This document shows, piece after piece, positions 14,723 through 33,974 of a DNA stretch of 64,000 nucleotides; positions within the stretch are counted from its first letter, which is position 1, and each line of letters opens with the position of its first letter. The notes below the pieces were generated by a model. That model ran no database searches and had not been told where the DNA came from. It saw nothing but the letters and a program-made list of their open reading frames with translations. The stretch is from assembly GCF_032062105.1 (NCBI RefSeq), contig NW_026928165.1:62001-126000 (forward strand). The letters are read 5' to 3'. The DNA is from Saccostrea cucullata (Eukaryota). The translations under genes were made by a program, and so were the position numbers.

Positions 14723-17284
14723 AAAGTGGCCACCAGTTTCATAAGTAACGAAAAATAAAATAGAATAAATTTCATTTTTCTCAGTAAATGTCCAAATAAT
14801 TACTTAGAAGCATGAGTTTTTCTATTTCTTTTATTGTTCAAACTGGTTTCTAAAAATGCCCCTGGTATATATTGGTACAAAAGTTTTGTTGGACAATTTT
14901 CAAAAGTATTCATTGGAATAAAAAATGTATACATGGAGTTTTGCAAACTACAAGTACAAAATGTCCCTGGTACCGATATGTAAGTGTCTTTCATAGTTCA
15001 TTGCGTTTAGATATATCCAAAATAGCTGCCTTTGCTACATGTATAGAATTAAAATGAGTCATTCATATCTGAAAATTTAAAATTTTAAAATCATTAAAAT
15101 AATTTTCCTATTAGCTTCCAAATCCAATGCAAACCCACTGGTATCGAGCTTGAAAAATCAGCTTTTGTTGCCTTTTTTTGTTGTTAGTTCTGGTTTTTCG
15201 TTTTCTTTTTTTTTCCCTTTTGAAGAACTACATGATACCCACCATATAATATGGGGAAACTTATAAAAATACAAATTTTGAGAATTTTGTCAGACATTCT
15301 TTGTAAAAAAAATTAATGCTTGGCTGTAGAAGGTAAATATGTGACCAAAACACTAATGGTACAGTTAAATACTTGACATATATTCAAAAATTTGTACACA
15401 GATACATGTAGTACAGCTGCGCTGTGAGATGTTGTTGAAACTAAGAGTTTTACGATTTTAAGCGTTTTCTTTTTTGGGATGGGACTGAATGATTTGAACT
15501 ATTTACTATAAGATTTCATACTAAACATGATATATATTTATTTTCATGAAAAATTAATTAAATGTCAAATAAATTTTTGGTTAATTTTTTTTCGGGGTGT
15601 GTGTGTGTGATAAGTACTAGTATGAGATGCCTATAACTTCACTGTAAAATAAAATTATCGGGTTTATAGTAAAATAACTCTATGAAATAACGGTTTGTGC
15701 GGCGATGAAAAACAATCCCGGTTTATAGCTGAGATACATTTTAATAACATGAAGCAGCGATCCAGTCAAAAGTGCCGAGAAATAAAATAAAAAAAGTACG
15801 TTAATTACTTATTGTTTGGTGTGCACTTTACTTGCTTCAATGTCAATGCTAATGAAACTTTAGTATACTATAGCATATTAAATGTAGTTGCATAATTTTA
15901 AAAAGTTTTTTCACTTAAATTTTTGAAATTAACGAATGGGCTATTATACAGACTAATTTACCCAAGTTCTTTGAATGTTAAGTTTCTTAAGATTTGAAAA
16001 ATCATAGTCCTTGTATTAACCACGGGATACAAATCAATACTGATAAACTACTTGTTGATCAAGAAACGGGTTCAAGTGACAGAAAATCATTGTAGTCAGT
16101 AAAAATTAAGACTCCGGAGAGACGCAGGTTGTGTGATTATCCGACAACCTGTTGCAAGCAGACGTTAGGCGAAATAATAAGATTACAATGACGTCTATGA
16201 TTAAAAGTAATTCATAATTCATAAGAGGCAGTGATGTAAAAGTTAGAAAATTAACAACTTTTGTAAAATGATTGAGATGATGAAAAAATTTTGAAAAACT
16301 TGTCATCAGATGGTCCATTGTATTTTTGATTGACTCTCGTATCAAAAAGATTGAAGTAATAAAATCCAAGTTATGACCCGATAAACATACCATTATCATC
16401 ATTATTATTAGCATCATCATTTTGAAAACTAGAAATCGTTTTGTTGTCCATATCAAACTCTGACAACATGTGAAATCTTCAAAGAATTCTGCATAATGTA
16501 TCAAAATAACGGGATATCATGAAAATCCCGATTATTCAGAAAATGAATGATGCCATCCTTCACATAGACAGAAGGGCGCAAATTGTAAGGTCATAGGTCA
16601 GTGTAATGTAGTTCTTCTTCACGTCTCCAAAATGGGAGAGCTTCTTATCAATCGCATGGTCAATTAACCAGTAAAGAAAGAGGGTGATTTTCAAAACCCA
16701 TTTTATGTATGGTAACCGGTGGATTAATACAAGATAACGAGCCAGTACCAAAACAGGGATTAGAAAAGACAAACGATGGTGGATTCGATATTGTGAGAAG
16801 TATGGCCACTTCACGTTTATCACTCTTATTTTGCAGTTTACGACTTGTGGTTGAAGTTTATATCCATAAAAATGTATGGGAATCTCTGCATCAAACCGAG
16901 CTGTGGATGAGCTTGGATCAATGTATATTACAGTTTCTGTAAACAGGGATTACATTGTCAGACATGTTCTTCCCTTTCATATTTATGTTGCATGAGCAAT
17001 AATATGAGGATTACACAAACTTTTTAGGCGCCGATGGCCTTTGGGGATAAAAATCAATATCTATTTATGATTCAAAACCTGTGTTTATGTTTGAAATAAA
17101 CTTTATAATGTGAAAAAGACATTTAACTTGCCTGGCAAGTGAAATGATTTGTCATTCTTATATTCAAAGCTCTCCAGTGTTGTAGTGTAAAACTTCCCCT
17201 TAGTGAGACTTCTTATGAAAGTCTTGATCTAGAGTGATCGAACCTATCCATAGGGGATGTCTTATTCTAGACCAATACCTCTAG

Positions 17285-20200
17285 CTTAAACAAAACAAGG
17301 TACATTAGCAACTGGTACCACTTACAATACCTATTCGGAATAAGACTAATGAGTGCATCAAAGAATGTCCACTTCTCTCTTTGACCATGCCCGTCATATT
17401 CAACTGAAAAATACAAAATTGATTGATTGATTTATTATGTGTTTTTAACGTCCGTCTCGAGAATTTTTCACTCGTATGGAGACCCACCTAGAAATTAAAA
17501 ATATACAAGAAAGTAATCTTACTGTTTTAAATCTGTGTGCTGCTGACAATTACACTTTGATCGCTGTTGTTTCCTGGCTTTTATCACAGCCAAGATTTAG
17601 TACAAGTCACATTCTGAAGTTTTATAAGTGAGTGGCTCAAAACAGTTTTTTAATCCACTGGGTTTGTTTATAGCATAAACAAAACCAGGGACATTAGCAA
17701 CTGGTACCACTTACACTACCTATTTAGAATGTGACGATTTCATTACAATGTCCATCATTCTTTTTGACCATGCCCTTCACATTCAACTGAAAAATACAAA
17801 ATTGATTGATTGATTATGATGTGTTTTAGCGTCTCTCTCGAGAATTTTTAACTCACAAGGAGACCCAATAAAGAATTAAAAACAGAGAAGAAAATAAACT
17901 TACTGTTTTTAATCTTTGTGCTGCTGACAACTACACTTCGTTCATCATTGTTGATTCTTGGTTTCTATCACAACCAAGATTAAGTACAAATCACATTCTG
18001 AAGTTTTGTGAGTGAGTGGCTCAAAACAGTTTTTTTCAATCCAGTGGGTTTGTTTATAGCATAAACAAAACCAGGGACATTAGCAACTGGTTCCATTCAC
18101 ACTACCAATTCAGAATGTGACTTGAGTACATCAACAGTATCCACTTCTCTCTTGTCTTCAAAAAGTGAAATAGAAGATCGGTGTTGTTTCCTTGAGTGGC
18201 TCGGAACAGTTTTCTAATCCATTGGCTTTCTTTATATCATGCCTCATATTCAACTGAAAAAAAATACACGATTGATTGATTGATAATATTTTGTTTAACG
18301 TTCCTGTCGAGAATTTTTCACTCAAACTGAGACCCAATAAAGATTTAAAAACAGACAAAAAAATAAACTTATTATTTTAAATCTGTGTACTGCTGGCAAG
18401 TAGATCTTGATCGCTGTTGTTTGTTGGTTTCTATCACAGCCAAGATTTAGTACAAGTCACATTCTGAAGTATTATGAGTGAGTGGCTCAAAACAGTTTTT
18501 TAATCCACTGGGTTTGTTTATAGCATAAACAAAACCAGGGACATTTGCAACTGGTACCACTTACACTGTTCAGAATGTGACTTGAGTGCATCAACAATGT
18601 CCAATTCTCTCTCGGACCATGTCCATCATATTCAACTGAAAAATACAAGATTGATTGATTAATGATGTGTTGTTAAGGTCCCTCTCAAGGATTTCTCTCT
18701 CATATGGAGACCCACTAAAGATTTAAAAACAGACAAGAAAATAAACTTACTATCTTAAATCTGTGTACTGCTGACAAGTCGATCTTCATCGCTGTTGTTT
18801 TTATGGTTTCTATCACAGCAAAGATTTAGTACAAGTCACATTCTGAAGTTTTATGAGTGAGTGGCTCAAAACAGGTTTTAATCCACTGGGTTTGTTTATA
18901 TCATAAACAAAACCAGGGACATTTGCAACTGGTACCACTTACACTGTTCAGAATGTGACTTGAGTGCATCAACAATGTCCACTTCTCTCTTTGGCCATGC
19001 CCATCATTTTCAACAGAAAAATACAAGATTGATTGATTAATGATGTGTTGTTTAAGTCCCTGTCGAGATTTTTTCACTCACATTGAGGCCCACTAAAGAT
19101 TTAAAAACAGAGAAGAAAATAAACTTACTATCTTAAATCTGTGTACTGCTGGCAAGTAGACTTTGATCGCTGTTGATTTTTTTTTTCTGTCACAGCCAAG
19201 ATTCAGTACAAGCCACATTCTGAAGTTTTATGAGTAAGTGGCTCAAAACAGTTTTTTAATCCACTGGGTTTGTTTATAGCAAAAACAAAACCAGGGACAT
19301 TAGCAAATGTTACCACTTACACTACCTATTCAGAATGTGACTTGAGTGCATCAACAATGTCCACTTCTCTCTCTGACAATGCCCATCATATTCAACTGAA
19401 AAATACAAGATTGACTGATTAATGATTTGTTGTTTAACGTCCTTGTCGAGAATTTTACACTTAGATGAAGACCCAAGAAAGAATTTAAAAACAGAGAAGA
19501 AAATAAACTTACTGTTTTTAATCTTTGTGCTGCTGACATCTACACTTCGTTGATCGTTGTTGATTCTGGGCCTTTATCACAGCCAAGATTTAGTAAAAGT
19601 CACATTCTGAAGTTTTATGAGTGAGTGGCTCAAAACAGTTTTTTAATCCACTGGGTTTGTTTATAGCATAAACAAAACCAGGGACATTAGCAACTGGTAC
19701 CACTTACACTACCTATTCAGAATGTGACTTGAGTGCATCAACAATGTCCAATTTTCTCTCTGACCATGCCCATCATATTCAACTGGGAAAAAAAATACAA
19801 GATTGATTGATTAATTATGTGTTATTAAAGTTCCCTTTCGAGAATTTCTCACTCTTAGGGAGACTACTAAAGATTTAAAAACAGAGAAGAAAATAAACTT
19901 ACTATCTTAAATCTGTGTACTGCTGGCAAGTAGATCTTGATCGCTGTTGTTTGTTGGTTTCTATCACAGCCAAGATTTAGTACAAGTCACATTCTGAACT
20001 TTTATGAGTGAGTGGCTCAATGCAGTTTTTATCCACTGGGTTTGTTTATAGGATAAACAAAACCAGGGATATTAGCGGTTGGTACCACTTACACTACCTA
20101 TTCAGAATGTGACCTGAGTGCATCAACAATGTCCTATTCTCTCTCTGACCATGTCCATCATATTCAACTGAAAAATACAAGATTGGTTGATTAATGGTGT

Positions 20201-23200
20201 GTTGTTGAAGGTCCCTTTCGAGGATTTTTACTCATATGGAGACCCACTAAAGAAGAAAATAAACTTACTATAATAAATCTGTGTACTGCTGACAAGTCGA
20301 TCTTGATCGTTGTTGTTTGTTGGTTTCTATGACAGCCAAGATTTAGTACAAGTCACATTCTGAAGTTTTATGAGTGAGTGGCTCAAAGCAGTTTTTAATC
20401 CACTGGGTTTGTTTATAGCATAAACAAAATCAGAGACATTAGCAACTGGTACCACTTACACTATTCAGAATGTGACTTGAGTGCATCAACAATGTCCACT
20501 TCTTTCTTTGGCCATGCCCATCATTTTCAACAGAAAAATACAAGATTGATTGATTAATGATGTGTTGTTTAAGTCCCTGTCGAGATTTTTTCACTCACAT
20601 TGAGGCCCACTAAAGATTTAAAAAGAGAGAAGAAAATAAACTTACTATATTAAATCTGTGTACTGCTGGCAAGTAGTTCTTGATCGCTGTTGTTTTATTT
20701 TTTTGGTTTCTGTCACGGCCAAGATTTAGTACAAGTCACATTCTGAAGTTTTATGAGTGAGTGGCTCAAAGCAGTTTTTTAAGCCACTGGGTTTGTTTAA
20801 AGTAGAAACAAAACCAGGGACATTAGCAACTGGTACCACTTACACTACCTATTCAGAATGTGACTTGAGTGCATCAACAATGTCCACTTCTCTCTTTGGC
20901 CATGCCCATCATATTCAACTGAAAAATACAAGATTGATTGATTAATGATGTGTTTATGTTTCCAGTCGAGGATTTCTCACTCATATGGAGACCCACTAAA
21001 GATTTAAAAACAGACAGGAAAATAAACTTACTATCTTAAATCTGTGTACTGCTTGCAAGTAGATCTTGATCGCTGTTGTTTTTATTGTTTCCATCACAGC
21101 CAAGATTTAGTACAAGTCACATTCTGAAGTTTTATGAGTGAGTGGCTCAAAGCAGTTTTTTAATCCACTGGGTTTGTTTATAGCATAAACAAAACCAGGG
21201 ACATTAGCAACTGGTACCACTTACACTACCTATTCAGAATGTGACTTGAGTGCATCAACAATGTCCACTTCTCTCTTTGGCCATGCCCATCACATTCAAC
21301 AGAAAAATACAGGATTGATTGATTAATGATGTGTTTTAAGGTCCCTCTCGAGGATTTCTCTCTCATATGGAGACCCACTAAAGATTTAAAAACAGACAAG
21401 AAAATAAACTTACTATCTTAACTCTGAGTACTGCTGACAAGTCAATCTTGATCGCTGTTGTTTTTATGGTTTCTATCACAGCCAAGATTTAGTACAAGTC
21501 ACATTCTGAAGTTTTATGAGTGAGTGGCTCAAAGCAGTTTTTTAATCCACTGGGTTTGTTTATAGCATAAACAAAACCAGGGACATTAGCAACTGGTACC
21601 ACTTACACTACCTATTCAGAATGTGACTTGAGTGCATCAACAATGTCCACTTCTCTCTTTGGTCATGCCCATCATATTCAACTGAAAAATGCAAGATTGA
21701 TTGATTAATGATGTGTTGTTTAAGGTCCCTGTCGAGAATTTTACACTTAGATGAAGACCCAAGAAAAATTTAAAAACAGAGAAGAAAATAAACTTGCTGT
21801 TTTTAATCTTTGTGCTGCTATCAACTACTCTTCGTTGATTGTTGTTGATTCTGGGCTTTTATCACAGCCAAGATTTAGTAAAAGTCACATTCTGAAGTTT
21901 TATGAGTGAGTGGCTCAAAACAGTTTTTTAATCCACTGGGTTTGTTTATAGCATAAACAAAACCAGGGACATTAGCAACTGGTACCACTTACACTACCTA
22001 TTCAGAATGTGACTTGAGTGCATCAACAATGTCCACTTCTATCTTTGGCCATGCCGATCATATTCAACTGAAAAATACAAGGTTGATCGATTAATGATGT
22101 GTGTTGTTAAAGTTCCCTTTAAAAATAGACAAGAGGATTTCTCACTCTGTATGGAGACCACTAAGGATTTAAAAACAGATAAGAAAATAAACTTACTATC
22201 TTCAATCTGTGTACTAGTGGCAAGTAGATCTTGATCTCTGTTGTTTTTATGGTTTCTATCACAGTCCAGAATTAGTACAAGTCACATTCTGAAGTTTTAT
22301 GAGTGAGTGGCTCAAAGCAGTTTTTTAATCCACTGGGTTTGTTTATAGAATAAACAAAACCAGGGACATTAGCAACTGGTACCACTTACACTACCTATTC
22401 AGAATGTGACTTGAGTGCATCAACAATGTCCACTTCTCTCTTTGGCCATGCCCATCATATTCAACTGAAAAATACAAGATTGATTGATTAATGGTGTGTT
22501 GTTGAAGGTCCCTTTCGAGGATTTTTACTCATATGGAGTCCCACTAAAGATTTAAAAACAGACAAGAAAATAAACTTACTATATTAAATCTGTGTACTGC
22601 TGACAAGTAGATCTTGATCGTTGTTGTTTGTTGGTTTCTATGACAGCCAAGATTTAGTACAAGTCACATTCTGAAGTTTTATGAGTGAGTGGCTCAAAGC
22701 AGTTTTTTAATCCACTGGGTTTGTTTATAGTATAAACAAAACCAGGGACATAAGCAATTGGTACCACTTACACTCCATATTCAGAATGTGACTTGAGTGC
22801 ATCACAGTGTCAATTATTCTCTTTGACCATGCCCTTCATATTCAACAGAAAAATACAAGATTGATTGATTAATGATGTGTTGTTAAAGGTCCCTCTCGAG
22901 GATTTTTACTCATATGGAGACCCACTAAAGATTTAAAAACAGACAAGAAAATAAACTTACTTTCTCAAATCTGTGTACTGCTGGCAAGTAGACCTTGATC
23001 GCTGTTTTTTTTTTGGTTTCTTTCAGAGTTAAGATTTAGTACAAGTCACATTCTGAAGTTTTATGAGTGAGTGGCTCAAAGCAGTTTTTTAATCCACTGG
23101 GTTTGTTTATAGTATAAACAAAACCAGGGACATTAGCAACTGGTACCACTTACACTACCTATTCAGAATGTGACTTGAGTGCATCAACAATGTCCACTTC

Positions 23201-23950
23201 TCTCTTTGGCCATTCCCATCATATTCAACTGAAAAATACAAGATTGATTGATTAATGATGTGTTGTTAAAGGTCCCTCTCGAGGATTTCTCTCTCATATG
23301 GAGACCCACTAAAGATTTTAAAACAGACAAGAAAATAAACTTACTATCTTAAATCTGTGTACTGTTGACAAGTCAATTTTGATCGCTGTTGTTTTTATAG
23401 TTTCTGTCACAGCCAAGATTTAGTACAAGTCACATTCTGAAGTTTTATGAGTGAGTGGCTCAAAGCAGTTTTTTAATCCACTGGGTTTGTTTAAAGCATA
23501 AAAAAGAATAGGGACATTAGCAACAGGTACCGCTTACACTACCTATTCAGAATGTGGCTTGGGTGCATCAACAATGTCCACTTCTCTCTTTGGTCATGCC
23601 CATCATATTCAACTGAAAAATGCAAGATTGATTGATTAATGATGTGTTGTTTAAGGTCCCTCTCGAGAATTTCTCACTCATATGGAGACTCGCTAAAGAT
23701 TTAAAAACAGACAAGAAAATAAACTTACCATTTTAAATCTGTGTACTGCTGGCAAGTAGACTTTGATCGCTGTTGTTTTTTGGTTTCTGTCACAGCCAAG
23801 ATTTAGTACAAGTCACATTCTGAAGTTTTATGAGTGAGTGGCTCAAAACAGTTTTTTAATCCACTTGGTTTGTTTATAGCATTAACAGAAGCAGGGTCAT
23901 AAGCAACTGGTACCACTTACACTACTCATTCAGAATGTGACTTGAGTTCA
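17285..23950. repeat. Tandem array of ~382-bp units (17 complete, one half unit, one internally deleted unit), each with nested inverted repeats and a SINE 3' tail
   Basis: The anchor CAAGTCACATTCTGAA (or a 1-nt variant) recurs at ~17603, 17987, 18453, 18832, 19209, 19596, 19983, 20349, 20732, 21113, 21495, 21880, 22278, 22660, 23042, 23425, 23809. Confidence 0.95.
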
Positions 23951-24370
23951 TACCATAGTCAAAAGCAAGGATATAAGAAGCTGGTATCGTTTTCCTTTTG
24001 CTGTTTTTAGTAAACTTGAAAAGGGAAATATATGTTCCTTTAAAATACATTTTTATGATCTTGACTTTTTTATCATTCCAGTTTGTCAGTGTGTTATATT
24101 TTAGTCCATAAATTGCATTGTTTGTTTATAATGCAAAAAAAAAAATTTCAAATTCAACCATGTGAGAATATATGTTATGAACATAAACAAATCCAAAAAT
24201 TATTCCAGAGAGTATCGCAGTAGGCCTATGATTTTCTCTTGAGTTATCAGAGTTTGGAAAGTCCTACTTGCACTTATTTCATGACAATACATTCAGGCTC
24301 CTCTGAAAACCAGTTTTCTGTATGTAAACAATGCATGAAACGTTGATGATTTCCTGTATTTTTGAATAAA
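17590..24370 (+). ncRNA. Putative spliced non-coding host transcript with repeated 38-nt micro-exons and intronic hairpins
   Basis: Each unit has a pyrimidine tract + CAG, a 38-nt exon and a GTGAGT donor. A further acceptor lies at 24010 and AATAAA at 24365. Joined exons hit a stop in the second copy. Confidence 0.4.
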
Positions 24371-26328
24371 AATTATAAAGATTAAATAAGAACATTGATA
24401 TAAAACGCATTATAATATCTCCAAACCTGTTTTTCTCTTTTATAGACCCCAATTTCTGTTTTTAATAAACCTCTCCTTCTTTCCGTGTATCCAAAGCCTT
24501 CGCGGCCTGCAACTCGTGGTCATGGTAACAGTATCCGGGTTATTTCTATAAGTAACGTTCAGAGCGGATACGGTGTAAAAATCCCGGGATTTTAAGAGAT
24601 ATTTTAAATCATTTTTGAAAATAAAAAAAATCATTAAAAATAATGATAATCAATTACATTTGTAAATATAATTTACGCAACTGATTGATATTAAAAGTAT
24701 TTGCCTTATAAAAAGTAGGTTGATAGAGTAGCGAAAATTGGTCCCTGTTTCAATTTATATACCTCAATACCTGACTTCCATAGAGAAGTCTACATGATCT
24801 TGTCGAACTTAACTTCCTTTTTGTGCGTGATAATTTTATATGCCCCACCTGCATAGCTCGATTGATTAAAAAGTATGGAACATGCGTCGGTAAATTTTTT
24901 ATATATATACTTGTATACTTTAATACCTTCCTATAAAAAAGGTGTGTCAAATATTTAAAAATTGTTTGTTTATCAAAAACAAATGAATTCTTGAAAATTA
25001 AGGACCTTGAATTAGTTGATTTTGCTTGAAGTTGATAGTGCTATCCTATGATTGATACACACAGTGCACTTTTGTAAACTATTCTATTTACTCTACTTGT
25101 ATGTATGCAAAAAAAAAAAAAATCTCCGTAAAAAAAATAGCATTTCTTAAATATTGTTTGTAATAAAAAAAACAAACAGGTAGAATTTGTGAAAATTAAG
25201 AATCTTGAATGTGATGATTCCTTGATAGTGCTCTCCTTTGATGCATCAATCAGGTACCCCTCTGTGTTGCGTGTTGATAACCAATGAATATAACAAATTA
25301 AGAGTTTATATTTCAATTTTGCAAAATATAATTAATTTTAAATGGCGGTGAAACCAACACCAAACATATTTGTGTGAGTCAAACCTGTCTGGATGTTTTC
25401 TTCCTTGCGTATTTTGCTTTTTCTATCTCCGCTCCTTTACACCGTCCGTACCCTTTCGCGCTCCGTAACTCTTTGTTGACATACGGGATCTACTTCCTTG
25501 GTAACCGATTCTCATTCGGAACATCCTCCGTCATTTTCTTACACAAGATACACAACATTTCCGAGTATTTCCGACTGCCTCCTTCATAGACGAGTTATGC
25601 CTCTTTGTATATGTTTTTTTTATTGGCGGATCTAAACTTGTATATAACAGAGTTACAAAAACAATTCTTACAAAGAATATTTATCTCTGTGATATAAAAA
25701 AAACCCCGGAAAGGGTTGTCAAACGGCATTAATTTAGATAAATTTATAAAAAAAATTTTATTTAAGTTAAACATTGTAGCTTGGGTTTCATTTACTTTAT
25801 TGAGGAGGCCAAACTGCAAATTCGCTTTTACCCGCCCCACCTTTTTAAAAACATCCGTTTCAAAGAGATCTTTGACAGCTACAAAGTAAGATTGATGCAA
25901 AGCAACAAATTGACTGCAAATAAAATTATTAAAAAGCTTTTAAGGGATATTTTCAAGACTGAATCAGGCCAAAAAAAAAAAAAATAAATAAATAAAAAAA
26001 TAAGTAAATAAAAAAGAAAAAAGAAAATAAATAAATAACACTGCATTTTAAACATAAGAAACGGTTAAAACATAAGTATTTCAAAATGTATTTAAAGCTA
26101 ATTAAAAAGCTAATTATGAAAAGAAATATAATTGTACACAAATTGCAAAATAATCAGACCCCATGACCATAAACTTAGGATACACATAAATAAGTCACAA
26201 TACCTAGAATTTTAATAAAAAATGTTGAAATAATTTGATGTTCGAATAATATTTAAATTTAAGCAATGAAAATGTTGTTCTTATTACTAGTACAATCAGG
26301 GACCTATATACTAACGTCCCTGGTACTC

Positions 26329-26943
26329 AATGGCGTAGCATCGTTTTTGAAAGGGGGGATTTTTAACATACCTGAAAACAACTTGACAAGTCCAAAAATT
26401 ATTAATACATGTACATGTAATCGTAAATTCTGTTTGACTTTCATTTTTTAAACCCATATAATTTAATTTCAGTTGTAACACGTCATTTGATTGGTTAAAC
26501 GGTTTTATCCATTTTGTATAACATAACTTGCCTACGTCACAATGAGTTACGTCAAAAACGTATTACTCCGCTGGACGTTAACTTTTAAAATATGCTATAT
26601 TTGAAGCCTTTTTCCGAAGGAAAAAATTGGAAAAATTGTATCATTGTCTACATTGAAATTAAATTATAAGGAATGACGCTTATTTCAACTTTTGTTATAC
26701 GATATAACATAACTTGGGGCAGTTTACGCTTTTTTATAAACCGTAAATTGCCCCAAGTTATGTTATATCGTATAACAAAAGTTGAAATAAGCTTCATTCC
26801 TTAAATATACTTTATTACACTGCAACAAAAATGGGAGAGAGGACAGACTTTCAATGAGAATTTTCTATAGTAAAAAAAAATGATGTCTGGAAAAAAAAAG
26901 TGGGAATGGGCAGCCCCCCCCCCCCCCCGTACTACTTGCCTTG
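26329..26943. mobile_element. Degenerate MITE (family of 57859-58220) carrying a nested palindromic element
   Basis: CAATGGCGTAGCATCGTTTTTGAAAG start and poly-C ...CTACTTGCCTTG end match the 57859 element. Confidence 0.5.
26455..26806. mobile_element. Palindromic (Crypton-like) non-autonomous element
   Basis: ~60-bp near-perfect inverted arms at 26667-26803 (TAAGGAATGA...TCATTCCTTA). Confidence 0.55.
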
Positions 26944-27205: not shown

Positions 27206-27304
27206 TAAACGTATATAAATTACTTGTTAAAAATTATTCAAAACAGAAGTACTCTGACCATTGCCTCTCTATGCTATGCTATCCGATTGGACATGAAAAG
27301 GTAG

Positions 27305-27560
27305 TTATCTCGAAAGAATAAGCAATTCAGAATGGCAGTATCTGTCATGGCTTTATTTTGTTTAAGATAGGTTATTACATAATAAATCAATGGTATCAAA
27401 CAATGGACAATGATCAAGTATTATTGCAAGTGTCAATGAGTAAGCGCCGATCCTCAATCTGGCATTTGGCGCCTACGGTTTGCAGAAACGGAGCCATATG
27501 GTGCTGACAACCCTGGAGGGTAAACAGAAGTTGCCAGCGATGGCTTGTTGCAAAATTCTG
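27305..27560 (-). repeat. Ngaro repeat B2 (256 bp; copy B1 at 28045-28300)
   Basis: The two copies appear identical by eye. Confidence 0.92.
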
Positions 27561-27893
27561 TAGTTCGTCGGCATGGATTGCAGCCTGGAAGGATCTCTAA
27601 AGCCATGACGAGGGACGATGTTGCACTGGAATCGGAAATGATAACAGCAGAAACACAGGAGAAAACTAATAATAATTGAATGCACAATATTTATGCCCTA
27701 ACATACCTATGATAAAAATACTATATGTATGCATATCCGCGTACGTAACTGAATAGGGTGATGTATATATGTAAGCAGTTTTTATGGATGACTGGTATAT
27801 GTAAGCAAGTTTTATGGATGATCGGTGTAAAGAAAAAACTGTGTGAATTAGATGAGGAATATTAATCTACATAAAATGGTGGGGGCGGGTGGG

Positions 27894-28300
27894 TGATCAA
27901 AATCGTCGAGCGGAGAGGATGTGTGCGCAAGCGCATTTAAGACTTGGGGCTATTTTGGAAATTTGGTTGAGGACAGGGGAGTTATCGCGCTTAGGCTATT
28001 CTTCTTCGATAACTGGCATTTACCGCACATGGCGGTAAATGCAATTATCTCGAAAGAATAAGCAATTCAGAATGGCAGTATCTGTCATGGCTTTATTTTG
28101 TTTAAGATAGGTTATTACATAATAAATCAATGGTATCAAACAATGGACAATGATCAAGTATTATTGCAAGTGTCAATGAGTAAGCGCCGATCCTCAATCT
28201 GGCATTTGGCGCCTACGGTTTGCAGAAACGGAGCCATATGGTGCTGACAACCCTGGAGGGTAAACAGAAGTTGCCAGCGATGGCTTGTTGCAAAATTCTG
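27894..28300 (-). repeat. Ngaro internal B1-A2 junction
   Basis: A2 (27894-28044) abuts B1 (28045-28300) at GCAA|TTATCT. Confidence 0.92.
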
Positions 28301-28614
28301 CCAAGTGGATTGCTGTGCACGAATTTCGAGACAGCAATCCATCCGCCAACAAGTGGCGGACAATTTGGCAAACAAGACATCATGTCTTATGCAACGCAAT
28401 GATTCTCAAAGCAATACAAAAACAATATGCAGGGTATCATCAATGAATAATGTGGCAAAGCAATATAACACAACATATCAAAGCATCAATCAGCATAACT
28501 GGGGGGAGGGGAGAGGGAAGGATGCAATGCAACTCAGTGCAATTGCGACTACTATCATGAATATGGGATGGTGTGAAGGTGTTTCTTTTACAAGCCATGC
28601 ACAGATACTGTGTT

Positions 28615-29222
28615 TTATGGGAGTGTGGGGAAAACCTTTTCACTTGAAGTCAGAAACTTGGACAATGCCGTTTGAATTGTAGTTGTAAAAATAGAATTTC
28701 CAAGATCTGATAAATGAACACAATCGAGGAATAATTTGGGCTGATCAATTCTAATATCTGGGTAACGAATGAGGGCCCCATTTAACTTTTGCACAACAAA
28801 GCAACCAATGGAATTATTTATTCTTTTTCTAGATTTCTCTGCAGCTTCGCTCGAAATTATGTAACGCCAGTATTTGCGAGGAAGTATATTTGACCATACA
28901 AGAAGAGTGTTTGGTAATTTTTTATGAAGGGAGGCAAATAATGATTTCATGGCTATTTGTAATTTTTTAAGGGACTGAATGCCAATACTGTTGCCACCAC
29001 AGTGAACTATTAGAACTTGAGGAATGATTTCATTATGGCGATTTAACAAACTAGCAATGTGTTGATCAAGTTGCTCCCATTTTAGTCCCCCAGATCCGGA
29101 CCAGGTTACATCTATGTTTAAGTGCTCCAGAGACAAGTTTTGGCCAATTGGTGAACGTGTGCAGTAATCTTCAGCTCGTCTGATGATGGAAGATCCAACA
29201 ATCCATACTTTGCAGCGAGTTC
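28615..29222 (-). CDS. Ngaro SGNH/GDSL-type hydrolase (esterase) ORF
   Basis: VWIVGSS (block I), WSGSGG (II), HCGGN (III), DCVH (V). There is no ATG before block I; the acceptor TTTGCAG ends at 29223. Confidence 0.8.
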
Positions 29223-29258
29223 CTGCAAACTTAGCTTACAGTTAGTAAGACTGACTAT

Positions 29259-30242
29259 CTACAAGACTACAGTATTAGGGCGAACATATGACTTAAAAGC
29301 GTTGGATTTCCATCTACCCATGGTTTTGATTTCTTGCTCTGGAGTACCTTGCATATACAATGAAGTTGCAGCCCCTATGCGAAATGAATGGGATTTGAAT
29401 GTTGATATATCAAGTTTGAGGAATGATAGAGCTTTCTTTAGTATTTGATTGAATTGATAGTAAGTCAAGGGTGAGCCATCCATGTGGCACAGAAACTGTG
29501 ATGTTTGAGTTTGTGATGGTCTATGGGTCGCGTACTCTAGAATGTTGTGGAATAGGACTTGATTGTGCTTTGTACTGTTAATGTGCATTGTTGTGCCCTT
29601 GCCATGCTGATCTGTTTTAGTTTTCCCTAAAGTGATCTGAATGGATGATTGGGATATTGATACATTTTCTATTGATAATGGGGAACTGTGGGTATTTGCC
29701 CTAGTGGTGGTTATTTCACCAACTCGAAGTAAAGCAAAGAATGCGAGCCCATATGCTGAGGAGAACAGTAATTTTTCATAATAATTGCGACACACATGTT
29801 ACAGCGAGTCTATTAACTTGACTAATAGGGGAAATGTTATCGGGCTTCTTGAATCTTTTCTATGTTTTAGTTGTTTAAAGCCATTTAGCATTTTCTTAAC
29901 TATGAAAAATTGGCATGGGTCTGGGAAATTACCAAGTTTTATGTTGAAGCTTAAGCCAGCTAGGTAGGTTTTGGCTGTAGAGTATGTTGTCCCCTTTGAG
30001 GATAGGTAAGCAATATAGTTAATTAATTGGTCTATGGGAGGGGGCCATACTTCTGTTAAGTTAAATTTTTTTCTAAATTGTGCAAATGAGTCAAGACCTT
30101 TCTGGTATATTTCTTGAGTGTTATGAGAGACTGATGCTGAGAGTAGTTGTTCTACTTCCTGCTCAAATGGTTCCAGAATTCCAGAGGAACTTGGCAGGGA
30201 TAATAGTCTGCATGGGGGGCCAGCTTCCTGAACTTTTGCCAC
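29259..30242 (-). pseudogene. Ngaro tyrosine recombinase with one in-frame nonsense codon (TAA 29801-29799)
   Basis: LLRVGE, KTKTDQ, HSFRIGAAT and GRWKSNAFKSY catalytic motifs; DSL*HVCRN reads in one frame. Confidence 0.9.
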
Positions 30243-31742
30243 TGAAAACGAGATATGGCATCAGCTATAGAATTAGAATGACCTGGTACATGTTCGCAGC
30301 GGACTTGGATATTGTATTTTAATATTTTATAAAGAAAAGGCCTGAGGAGGGACATAACTCTTGGTGACTTTGATGTTTTTTGGTTGATTATCTCGACAAC
30401 AGCCATGTTATCAATGTGCAAGATTATTTTTCTGCCTTGTAGTTTGTGGCCCCATATGTATATTGCAAGGGCGACTGGGACTAGCTCCAGATAAGTCAGA
30501 TCTCTACAATCGTGTTGTGACCATTCTGAGGGCCATTGTAGGTAGGACCATTGTGTACCAAATATGACCCCACACCCAAGTGAACCAGAGCTATCAGAGG
30601 ATATGTGAATAGTGTCTTTATCTGACCAGTGAATATCTGGGAATACAGTTGTGCCATTAAAGTCAGACAGGAACTCGAGCCATATATCTACATCTTCGCG
30701 AAGTGCCCTTGAGATAGTGATATAATGGTGTTGTTTGTATCCCTGTGATAGGCTGTCATAAAATCGCCTACAAAAGGCTCTCCCTGCAGGTATTGCCTTA
30801 GAAATAAATGCCAAAGATCCAACTAATGATTGCATTTCTTTAAGAGTAATTTTGCGACGCGAGGCAACGTTTTGAAGTTGGGCTTTAAGGGCGTCGACTT
30901 TATCTTTAGGGACAAATATAGTTTGGGTGATGGTATTAATCCCTAACCCTAGAAATGTTAAACAAGTTGTAGGACCTTCAGTTTTTTCCTCTGACAGAGG
31001 AACGCCGAGCGTTTCACAAGTTATGTCAAATATTTGCATGAGGTTTTTGCACACAAGGGTGTTTGCAGGGCCTGCAAAAAGGAAATCATCAAGGTAGTGT
31101 ACTAATGTGTCAATATTGGCTCGATCTTGAACAATCCAATGGAGGGCTGTTGCAAATTTTTCAAATGTAGCACATGCTATAGAGCAACCGAATGGGAGGC
31201 ACTTATCGAAATAATAGTTGTTAAAATAAAAACCAAGCAAGGAAAAATCCTCGGGGCGAATAGGAAGGAGTCTGAATGCACTAGAAATGTCTTTTTTCCC
31301 CAATAAAGCTCCCTTGCCTAGTTCTTTTATCATTCTTACTGTCGAGTCAAATGATGTATAATGAACGGTGCAGAGATCTGGGTCTATAAAGTCATTAACA
31401 CTATTTCCCTCTGGTGCAGATAAGTTACAAATCATACGCCACCCCCCTTGCTTTTTGGGAACAATGCCTATTGGGCTACACTTGATATTTGACATGGGGA
31501 TATTCTTGAACGGCCCAGCTACTCTACCTAATTTAACCTCTTGATCAATTTTTTTCTTGGAGCTGCTGTGAATTTGTTTGTGCAGATTTCATGTTTTTAG
31601 ATTTTTGATATTCCCGTATACCCGAATAACAAATGTTGAAACCATATTGAAAACCATTGATTAATTCATGAGCAATATGTTGCAAGGGGTAGTCTTTTAG
31701 CATTGATTTTAGGATGTTAACGTTGACTGGGGTTGGGGCCAA
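30152..31742 (-). CDS. Ngaro reverse transcriptase / RNase H; +1 frameshift in an A7 run at 31549-31555
   Basis: APTPVN N-terminus, SPIGIVPKK, LPFGCS, YLDDF; RNase H SDSS..LELVPV..IDNMAV..NSIADAISR. Confidence 0.92.
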
Positions 31743-32772
31743 GTCCCAGAGGCCTTGGTTGGTTTGGGGGGAACCCTCTACTCTGAAATCTGCTTGGGGG
31801 CTGGCGGGGATGTTCGGCTTGGGATGGGCGAAAGTTTTCTGTGCGAAATGCCTGACTGTTGTGCCAGCGGCAGTTTATGAGTGGGTGATTATTGGAGCAT
31901 TTAATGCAAGCATGTTGATAAGTGCAGTATGGTCTTCCGCATGTGCCTTTGTAATTGAAGTCAAAGCATTTTGGCGATTTAGTTGTATAATTTGGGGTTT
32001 GCTGTGATAGAGTGTTGTGGCCATGAGACACATACAAGAGCCATAATTCTGCGTCGACACACCCCCAGTCGAGAGTATGGTTCCTGGAGCGCTTTAGTCT
32101 AAACTGTATGTCATAATTGAGCCAGTTTAAGTTTGATGATCGCTGTGCAGCAGTGCGTATGATGTTAATGTATTTAAGGATTGATTGAATGTGTTCAGGG
32201 AACTTAGTCAAGTAAATGCTGCTGAAAATGAGGAAAGCATTTGTCCATGTTTCAATTGAAGTTATTTTGATTTCTTTATGCTTAGCCTTTAGCACTAATT
32301 CGCCAGCAACAAATGCGAGCTGTTGCTGGGGCTCGTCATTTGGTTTGAGAGGAAGTAATTTATGCAAGTGAATGAATGCATTATCATATATGTTTTGTCT
32401 CAGGTTGTCTGGGACATGGACGCCCAATGCGTCTGAAACGCTACATAATGAATTTGGTGTTGTTGCACTTGAATTAGTTAATGTATTAGTGCTGCCTGAA
32501 GTACCTGTAGATAGCATTGTTGGCGATGCCTCAAACTCTAAGGGGTCAGGGATGTCTATTCCTGAGGAAGTTGTAGGCTGGTTTGATAAGGCTGGAGGTA
32601 TGGCGTCAGGAGTGACCTGGTTCGGTTGAGTCACGGTGCTTGTAGCAGTGGTGACCTGGTTCGGTTGAGTCACGGTGCTTGGAGGCCTGGATGCTTTGGC
32701 CTTTTTGGTGGCAGCTGGAGCTCGGCCGGGCCTGGCATATGGAGACTTTGTAGTCCTTTTTGCACGGAGCAT
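31717..32772 (-). CDS. Ngaro gag-like ORF1
   Basis: SIETWTNAFLIF, WLNYDIQFR and C-terminal CFDFNYKGTC..C..HAC..C...H....C zinc knuckle; overlaps the RT start. Confidence 0.85.
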   Translation of the reverse strand: MLRAKRTTKSPYARPGRAPAATKKAKASRPPSTVTQPNQVTTATSTVTQPNQVTPDAIPPALSNQPTTSSGIDIPDPLEFEASPTMLSTGTSGSTNTLTNSSATTPNSLCSVSDALGVHVPDNLRQNIYDNAFIHLHKLLPLKPNDEPQQQLAFVAGELVLKAKHKEIKITSIETWTNAFLIFSSIYLTKFPEHIQSILKYINIIRTAAQRSSNLNWLNYDIQFRLKRSRNHTLDWGCVDAELWLLYVSHGHNTLSQQTPNYTTKSPKCFDFNYKGTCGRPYCTYQHACIKCSNNHPLINCRWHNSQAFRTENFRPSQAEHPRQPPSRFQSRGFPPNQPRPLGLGPNPSQR

Positions 32773-33207
32773 GTTTCTATAAAACAAACAACTGTGTAAC
32801 TTGTGTTTAACATATACATAATTTATTATTATTATTATTAATTGCTTATATATTTATAAATTTTTACTATTAATGTTTTTTTTTTTTTATTTTTTTATTT
32901 TTTGTTTGAATCTGAGATTGTGAATTATTAACATCGTTTACTAATTATGAATGATCAAATTATATGTAGAGTTAAAGCCCTTTTGTTTAACGTTTGGCAT
33001 GCCGCCATTAACGGATGGTGATGATGAATATTGATCCAGCAAAATCTGCTGACATCTTAAGTGCTGAGGCAAGGGAAACGCCCAATTCGCTTCCAATGCT
33101 CACTAGATGTTTAATACATACCGATGACCGGTGGAACGATACCTGTACAATATAGTAATCCACGTAATGGGTTGCAACTTGGAGGTGATTTTTCTGTTGA
33201 TACTGTC

Positions 33208-33358
33208 TGATCAAAATCGTCGAGCGAAGAGGATGTGTGCGCAAGCGCATTTAAGGCTTGGGGCTATTTTGGAAATTTGGTTGAGGACAGGGGAGTTATC
33301 GCGCTTAGGCTATTCTTCTTCGATAACTGGCATTTACCGCACATGGCGGTAAATGCAA
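33208..33358 (-). repeat. Ngaro repeat A1 (151 bp)
   Basis: Two mismatches to A2; terminal hairpin GCATTTACCGC-ACATG-GCGGTAAATGC. Confidence 0.92.
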
Positions 33359-33974
33359 ATAACTTCTCACAATATAACTCTTTCGTTCCTGGAGGTAATT
33401 TTAGTGTTTATAGGAAAACAAACAGACCTGAGTGCGAAAGGTTAAAAAATGGGTAGTGTATATTCAACATTTTTCATGTTTCTGTTTTGATTAATGTACA
33501 TAACAGTGTGCAGAACATATATATGCGTACATGAGAGGTAATATGGTCATCCATTTTATACTTCGTCGGTAAATATTGGTCGCTAGTCAGAAGCATCACA
33601 AAAATGCGTTGCAAAGATTGTGAAAGAAGAAAAAAAAATCACAATAAGTGATTTCATGCACCTGAGGTATCCACTATGTAGTTTTAAAAATAATATACTA
33701 GTATATAATACAGATAAATGTTGCTATGATGTTCAACTCTTCCAAAGGCAGTAGCTTGTCCCTGACCTTGTTTTGTGTTTGTCTTGTGATGCATCTGCTT
33801 CATACTGTTATATAATCGTACACTGTATAAAAATTACAAGGCATAAAAGATTTCAAGGAGATTTAAAAAAAAAAGCTCCTTTAATGAAATATAAAAGAAA
33901 CACAATTCAATCAGAATTCAATAAAATATTGCACACTAGAATTTGTGAGAAAACGATTCTTATTATGCGGTCTT

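Follow-up and report, generated by a model that had tools for sequence, protein, structure and literature searches.

What RNA, from which strand, is made by the tandem array at positions 17282-23951 of a 64,000-nt stretch of the Saccostrea cucullata genome (contig NW_026928165.1; the whole stretch is called the window here), and why does each of its repeats fold back on itself? The array holds 17 full units of ~382 bp, each with a hairpin, and one partial unit. A model's interpretation of the letters alone (the sequence-only reading) proposed a plus-strand micro-exon in every unit, with its donor buried by pairing to an intronic antisense copy. We find instead that the array is spliced on the minus strand. 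The variable ~115 nt of each unit, bearing a fragment of a short interspersed element (SINE), is a GT-AG intron, and the hairpin lies inside a ~267-nt exon. A shared 5' exon is spliced towards the array, the transcript is noncoding, and constraint covers the whole hairpin. About three dozen related loci, this array among them, form an apparently undescribed multi-locus family of long noncoding RNAs (lncRNAs) with a repeated structured exon; we found no description of this hairpin-repeat family among the papers listed by our literature searches, which did not cover subscription journals.

The RNA data are one run of long RNA, assembled into contigs and apparently from another individual, in which strand and level are not directly readable; 0.06 of sampled words were present in it. 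Two overlapping passes over the same contigs gave 30 tabulated joints; 12 further joints from one pass and 7 from the other lie outside that table. Ten of the 30 agree within 1 nt, five of them without any offset, with the spacer that bears the SINE fragment being spliced out as a minus-strand intron, and another is off by 3 nt; judged by depth value, about five distinct contigs are represented. None of 831 BLAST hits across 40 fetched stretches spans the spliced exon-exon join, and a genome-wide pattern for it returned one match (control, one) in unrelated sequence without a hairpin. GT-AG splicing is thus indicated by joints that occur in RNA while the join is absent from the examined DNA, for one run and at the level of contigs. 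Depth was 2,500-4,300 at points in the hairpin, 42-51 in intron bins and 24-34 in the 5' blocks, values that are summed over many paralogs and give no ranking of expression. Long-RNA contigs also cover the apical stem of the hairpin.

Exons in the window measure 262-273 nt in 15 of 16 units and 350 nt in the other, and its 17 introns comprise 11 with GT-AG ends, one with GC-AG and five with a broken site. Across 36 loci (see below), the donor reads GTAAG in 32 locus consensuses, and 520 of 608 units have GT there. Intron length ranges from ~26 to ~147 nt; the shortest, at ~26 nt, may not be spliced. All genomic copies examined retain their introns, and a retroposed origin was set aside on that ground and on the lack of the spliced join in the fetched DNA. 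No coding signal appeared as a synonymous excess in six frames (269 observed against 298 expected in the open frame), in-frame stops are present, and exon lengths do not preserve frame. A protein or selenoprotein from the 40-60-codon open stretch over the hairpin was rejected for the same want of synonymous excess.

The array is not alone in the genome. Both exact 13-nt stem arms co-occur 82 times (control, 0), and a 23-mer from the unit occurs 158 times. We compared 40 sequences, the window and 39 fetched stretches, and 36 of them hold arrays, with 608 full units in all, periods of ~277-408 bp and ~4-44 hairpin units each. Several near-identical locus pairs are probably haplotypes, so the independent loci would number fewer than 36. 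In one subfamily with a 277-bp unit (loci L055, L057, L060, L062 and L063) the acceptor is gone together with a portion of the exon, and the junction is unspliced in RNA contigs. A metagenome pattern scan for the family gave no matches.

These copies bear directly on whether the foldback is a miniature inverted-repeat transposable element (MITE) later amplified in tandem. Although its 16-bp terminal inverted arms have the right look, the genome yielded no empty insertion site by an exact two-motif pattern and, among the matches listed, no solo hairpin outside an array; the target-site-like AGTA lies on both sides of the foldback in unit 2 only. A MITE origin, which the sequence-only reading had named as one outcome that would undo it, is therefore scarcely credible, and the foldback stands as something other than a MITE. 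Searches for stem homology to a target gene likewise gave array copies only, among the matches listed.

The arrays have a constant side and a ragged one. Conserved block 1, the likely first exon, accompanies 30 of the 36 arrays, always on one side and in one orientation, and all 33 of its copies examined carry a half site that we take to be RFX-like. RNA contig cover ends near 24613 and 25543. Block 2, a likely alternative first exon, is covered by RNA contigs. No splice joint of block 2 was among those tabulated, and homology between the blocks is suggestive only (score 36 against a shuffle maximum of 37). Between block 1 and the array lies a small internal exon from which one joint, 23863->24274, leads to an acceptor inside the last hairpin; the contigs showing this exon may come from paralogous loci. 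At the far ends, by contrast, each of the 23 loci with enough sequence has 0-3 others that still share its sequence beyond ~500 nt, and the window's own far flank is unique in the genome. Part of that flank (16575-17262) is possibly the transcript's 3' part, alternatively DNA carry-over. The outermost partial unit (17217-17347) has diverged; by eye, its right stem arm carries two changes that would pair with either of two upstream stretches (~17217 and ~17257).

The stem on which the sequence-only reading was built is real: positions 21495-21510 and 21615-21630 are exact reverse complements of each other. The window-consensus hairpin of ~150 nt folds at -55.7 kcal/mol on the plus strand (z = -6.6, 60 dinucleotide shuffles) and at -55.2 kcal/mol on the minus strand (z = -6.3), that is, equally on both. 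Folding of the whole consensus favored the minus strand in 35 of 36 loci, but the hairpin alone shows no such preference and we set this aside as strand evidence. Predicted folds place an apical sub-hairpin of ~60 nt on a short lower stem, and the longest uninterrupted helix is 9-17 bp in all 36 loci, short of the long duplex expected of a hairpin RNA (hpRNA) or endogenous small interfering RNA (siRNA) locus.

What, then, of the plus strand? The proposed micro-exon, donor and intronic antisense copy all fall within one ~267-nt minus-strand exon. None of the 30 tabulated joints coincides with the plus-strand exon start of any of the 17 units, and RNA contigs read straight through the proposed acceptor, which on the minus strand is a site complementary to the microRNA miR-2 (considered below). 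A preference for substitutions that keep plus-strand pairing was also claimed. Over 36 loci, G·U-compatible changes number 244 on the plus and 244 on the minus strand, in a count confined to Watson-Crick consensus pairs in which the lower helix was mispaired in 16 loci that have an insertion and one basal pair offset in 17. Repeated with corrected pairs in loci of at least eight units, the test gave 51 shared variants for plus and 58 for minus (p = 0.57), and the window alone gave 10 against 4 (p = 0.18). The claimed strand preference is therefore not borne out. A plus-strand splicing switch can point to AG and GTGAGT motifs in most locus consensuses, and to one lower-helix G·U pair and one T·G intermediate that suit that strand, but the 'donor' helix no longer pairs in 16 of 36 loci, and we consider the idea very improbable. 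Burying of splice sites may still occur on the minus strand, because the weaker sites of a minor alternative intron inside the hairpin are used in a few contigs. Differences between unmatched RNA and DNA, which would bear on editing of the stem by ADAR, ran to 23 T>C against 18 A>G in one count and 13 against 8 in another; the top differences coincide with paralog alleles.

The claim that the foldback is conserved fared better. Variant events per site and locus amount to 0.35 at paired and 0.37 at unpaired positions of the hairpin, 0.65-0.68 in the flanking exon and 0.83 in the intron stub, so that stems and loops of the hairpin together show about half the variation of the exon around it. Constraint acts on sequence, in stems and loops alike. 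As in lncRNAs of the Firre, NORAD or Xist type, conservation of the repeated exonic module exceeds that of the sequence around it. Of 1568 variants in the hairpin, 1113 are singletons (71%); the two exon flanks have 905 singletons among 1542 variants and 603 among 1060 (57-59%; p = 2e-17). The sequence-only reading held further that the SINE-derived part varies far more than the rest: this is so relative to the hairpin (11.2% against 3.6% off-consensus sites in 16 window units), but the non-SINE exon flanks are equally variable, at 11.1% and 12.8%. The SINE-derived part is ~60 nt per unit and matches the end of a dispersed SINE-like repeat with fuller copies at 43507 and at two other loci; full copies elsewhere have a tRNA-like head by eye, and the fragment is array-wide only in the window's subfamily of loci.

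Two pairs of the hairpin have switched compensatorily, with half-way states in some loci, while its mismatches and bulges stay the same. The basal pair is T-A in 17 loci and G-C in 17, with mismatched states in two loci that branch beside the G-C group; at the apical pair, 21 loci have C-G, 11 have T-A and three have T·G. Double changes at true pairs number 48 against 31.7 expected, where slid controls reached up to 40 against 35.

The explanation that we favor, though with less than even confidence, is that these loci are spliced noncoding minus-strand genes in which the ~150-nt predicted hairpin of the repeated exon serves as a multivalent docking module for an RNA-binding protein. RNA polymerase II would start at the two conserved blocks (24427-25545), and the loci would have multiplied as DNA duplications that kept the 5' block and the array with its ragged far end. 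Selection would then maintain the sequence and fold of the module, and the hairpin would act as a repeated binding module in a long RNA, its ligand a protein, as for the Firre repeating RNA domain (RRD), NORAD and the Xist repeats.

A number of observations weigh against this explanation. Six of 36 arrays lack a 5' block in the fetched range, and some loci that lost their acceptor by deletion nevertheless appear in RNA. Within arrays no pairing-specific selection is evident, since paired and unpaired hairpin columns are equally constrained and G·U-compatible changes are not favored. The basal switch is a single change on the tree, about two compensatory events exist in all, and compensatory units number 17 against 11 expected; the three-locus T·G apical intermediate suits the plus strand better. 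Because the contigs give no direct strand, unspliced plus-strand RNA remains compatible with them. The lower spread of hairpin variants within arrays could be inflated by assembly errors, whose effect on the share of singletons would be largest in regions with few true variants. On either side of the hairpin conservation declines gradually, as gene conversion would also produce. Finally, the docking partner is itself only a putative protein.

Several of these points suit a transcribed satellite whose RNA has no function. Its palindrome would drive amplification and homogenizing gene conversion, and captured promoter and splice sites would yield RNA as a by-product. Equal constraint on paired and unpaired positions, the absent G·U preference, the smooth decay of conservation away from the hairpin, the ragged array ends, the broken splice sites in five of 17 window units and the acceptor-less loci would all follow. 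A satellite does not readily account for a 5' exon block retained beside most arrays, for a donor retained in 32 of 36 loci despite a severalfold change in intron length, or for a stem that passed through a mismatched state when it switched, was not perfected, and still carries fixed mismatches. We regard this account as rather unlikely. Animal retrozymes and retrozyme-like 350-bp arrays are also dispersed tandem arrays of 280-400-bp transcribed units. Unlike them, the oyster family has spliceosomal introns and a shared 5' exon block and shows no Rfam match to the self-cleaving ribozyme that a retrozyme carries in each unit: no Rfam ribozyme was matched at E <= 5 in the window or at E <= 1 in four other loci, although classes outside Rfam are possible. 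Rfam as a whole gave nothing credible in the window (two chance matches, E about 4) or in those four loci. Ribozyme, small nucleolar RNA and mirtron were set aside for lack of Rfam support and because the needed motifs are not conserved by eye.

A polycistronic small-RNA precursor deserves more weight than a satellite, while still being on the unlikely side. In such a pri-miRNA-like or hpRNA-like transcript, Drosha or Dicer would cut each hairpin to a ~22-nt guide, as in the C19MC host transcript or Drosophila hp-CG4068. The architecture fits, with tandem 277-408-bp units in spliced noncoding transcripts (PMC2691840, PMC10317233; papers are cited here and below for the sections that we drew on), and the apical sub-hairpin on its short lower stem is of a plausible form. 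As described in those sections, C19MC likewise yields a spliced noncoding RNA built of repeated units of 400-700 nt, which contain repeated exons, SINE pieces and one hairpin each, but its hairpins are intronic pre-miRNAs of ~70 nt that lie at a single locus and have proven products (PMC2691840), whereas the oyster hairpin is ~150 nt, mainly exonic and multi-locus. hp-CG4068 resembles the family in its tandem hairpins (9-20 there) from a common transcript and its fast change in copy number; it needs Dcr-2 and has a target gene (PMC10317233), whereas the oyster duplexes reach at most 17 bp. The sections of a mollusc survey that we used report no siRNA Dicer or dedicated siRNA pathway in molluscs (PMC12479628), and six 9-nt hairpin motifs were absent from nine Pacific-oyster miRNA supplement files (one of them covered in part), from another species, that belong to the survey PMC4138081 and in which a positive control was matched.

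The geometry of the hairpin tells against a precursor as well. A conserved 22-nt duplex arm with a variable loop beside it is lacking; the 22 nt under the strongest constraint run across an internal loop, the apical hairpin closes with a 3-nt loop, the loops are constrained like the stems, and Rfam offers no match. The loop of a pre-miRNA would be free to vary. We prefer a docking module to a pre-miRNA because stems and loops are both constrained, because the hairpin is exonic, and because long RNA covers its apical stem.

The site complementary to miR-2 raises another possibility, namely that each exon offers a miR-2-family site beside a stabilizing hairpin and that a transcript with tens of such sites is a miR-2 sponge. 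The genome's mir-2 loci yield nine distinct candidate matures, of which all share the seed and three match the 11-nt site at their 5' end; the start of a mature miR-2 is confirmed by a table in the Pacific-oyster survey, in the section that we drew on (PMC4138081). The seed match occurs in 408 of 608 units. In many loci the site is predicted to lie in the loop of a small 8-bp hairpin, and in four other loci that were folded six of its bases are predicted to be mostly unpaired. The site is nevertheless no more conserved than its neighbors (observed/expected 0.86-0.91, against 0.5-0.7 in the hairpin), its 8-mer is found in only eight of 17 window units, and the match was noticed post hoc, with a chance probability that we estimate at roughly 1-2%. 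As a sequence match it is a weak lead, and a sponge seems improbable. The genome's mir-2 loci (L082-L089, at G000:C18254:270209-273823 and on three other contigs) comprise a cluster of at least seven hairpins and a divergent mir-2-like pair that occurs on three contigs.

A doubtful but less remote version joins the two ideas: tens of loci with at least 600 hairpin exons and a shared RFX-like promoter block would use the hairpin to titrate an RNA-binding protein and the adjacent loop-displayed site to titrate miR-2/Argonaute. If this were true, the RNA would be both Firre/NORAD-like and sponge-like, with its dose set by array length and locus number.

For the docking module itself, the closest described systems are lncRNAs functionalized by repeat modules, such as Firre with its 156-bp RRD in 8-16 copies and hnRNPU, NORAD, and the Xist repeats (PMC6316617). 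The oyster family shares with them a noncoding transcript holding many copies of a conserved module of ~150 nt. Compared by description, Firre, NORAD and Xist are single mammalian loci, whereas the oyster family has tens of loci with ~4-44 hairpins each, one per exon. First exons common to its loci, conserved splice sites and a structured module present in hundreds of copies make it an unusually clean candidate for a functional lncRNA. To our knowledge, functional lncRNAs are almost uncharacterized in molluscs. The window also illustrates that what looks like a satellite can be a family of multi-exon genes, one that would be concealed by repeat-masking.

Table 1. Features of the array and its flanks in window coordinates (strand is given as a period where none is assigned).
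Feature	Position	Strand	Remarks
Tandem array, body of the noncoding transcript	17282-23951	-	Strand from spliced RNA contigs
Representative repeated exon, hairpin inside	22197-22464	-	268 nt; junction fit
Representative repeated intron	22465-22579	-	115 nt; GTAAGT donor, pyrimidine tract and AG acceptor; RNA joints
End fragment of SINE-like repeat, intronic	23244-23302	-	Sequence match
Conserved rod-like hairpin (example, unit 11)	21495-21630	.	16-bp basal stem, internal loops, ~60-nt apical hairpin, 3-nt loop
Most constrained 22-nt window of the unit	21520-21542	-	Observed/expected substitutions 0.51; straddles internal loop, no clean duplex arm
Minor alternative GT-AG intron, hairpin interior	21506-21611	-	Joints 19995->22415 and 23821->23563; a few RNA contigs
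11-nt site complementary to 5' end of the genome's miR-2 family members	21474-21484	-	Sequence match
Small internal exon between 5' exon and array	24274-24317	-	Joints 24317->24427 and 23863->24274, both CT..AC on the plus strand
Conserved block 1, likely first exon	24427-24600	-	Ends in CAG/GTTT donor; presumed RFX-like half site; 34 genome copies
Conserved block 2, likely alternative first exon	25385-25545	-	Same donor motif; RNA contig cover; 31 genome copies
Unique sequence past the far end of the array	16575-17262	.	Two low-depth RNA contigs

The rest of the window holds genes and mobile elements. Two zinc-finger open reading frames (ORFs) at 5118-7171, some 10 kb downstream of the array and, like the lncRNA, on the minus strand, belong to what we take, from their motifs, to be a Snail/Scratch-like C2H2 gene. 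On the plus strand, scattered exons of an ankyrin-repeat, VPS9-like gene, presumably ANKRD27-like, extend over 38525-59891. Split direct repeats (27297-27560/28037-28300 and 27894-28050/33208-33364) mark 27297-33364 as a presumed DIRS-like element, whose ORFs, some of them split by stops, we take to be gag-like, reverse transcriptase/RNase H and tyrosine-recombinase-like. A 463-aa reverse-transcriptase-like ORF at 827-2218 (minus strand) is presumably from a long interspersed element. A near-perfect inverted repeat at 26667-26803 is MITE-like, with 66-nt arms that are 95% complementary and a 5-nt spacer. Tandem repeats of 166 bp (42047-42746, adjoining a GTCT microsatellite) and 147 bp (49779-50634) are, we presume, of the kind found in bivalve Helentron-like elements.

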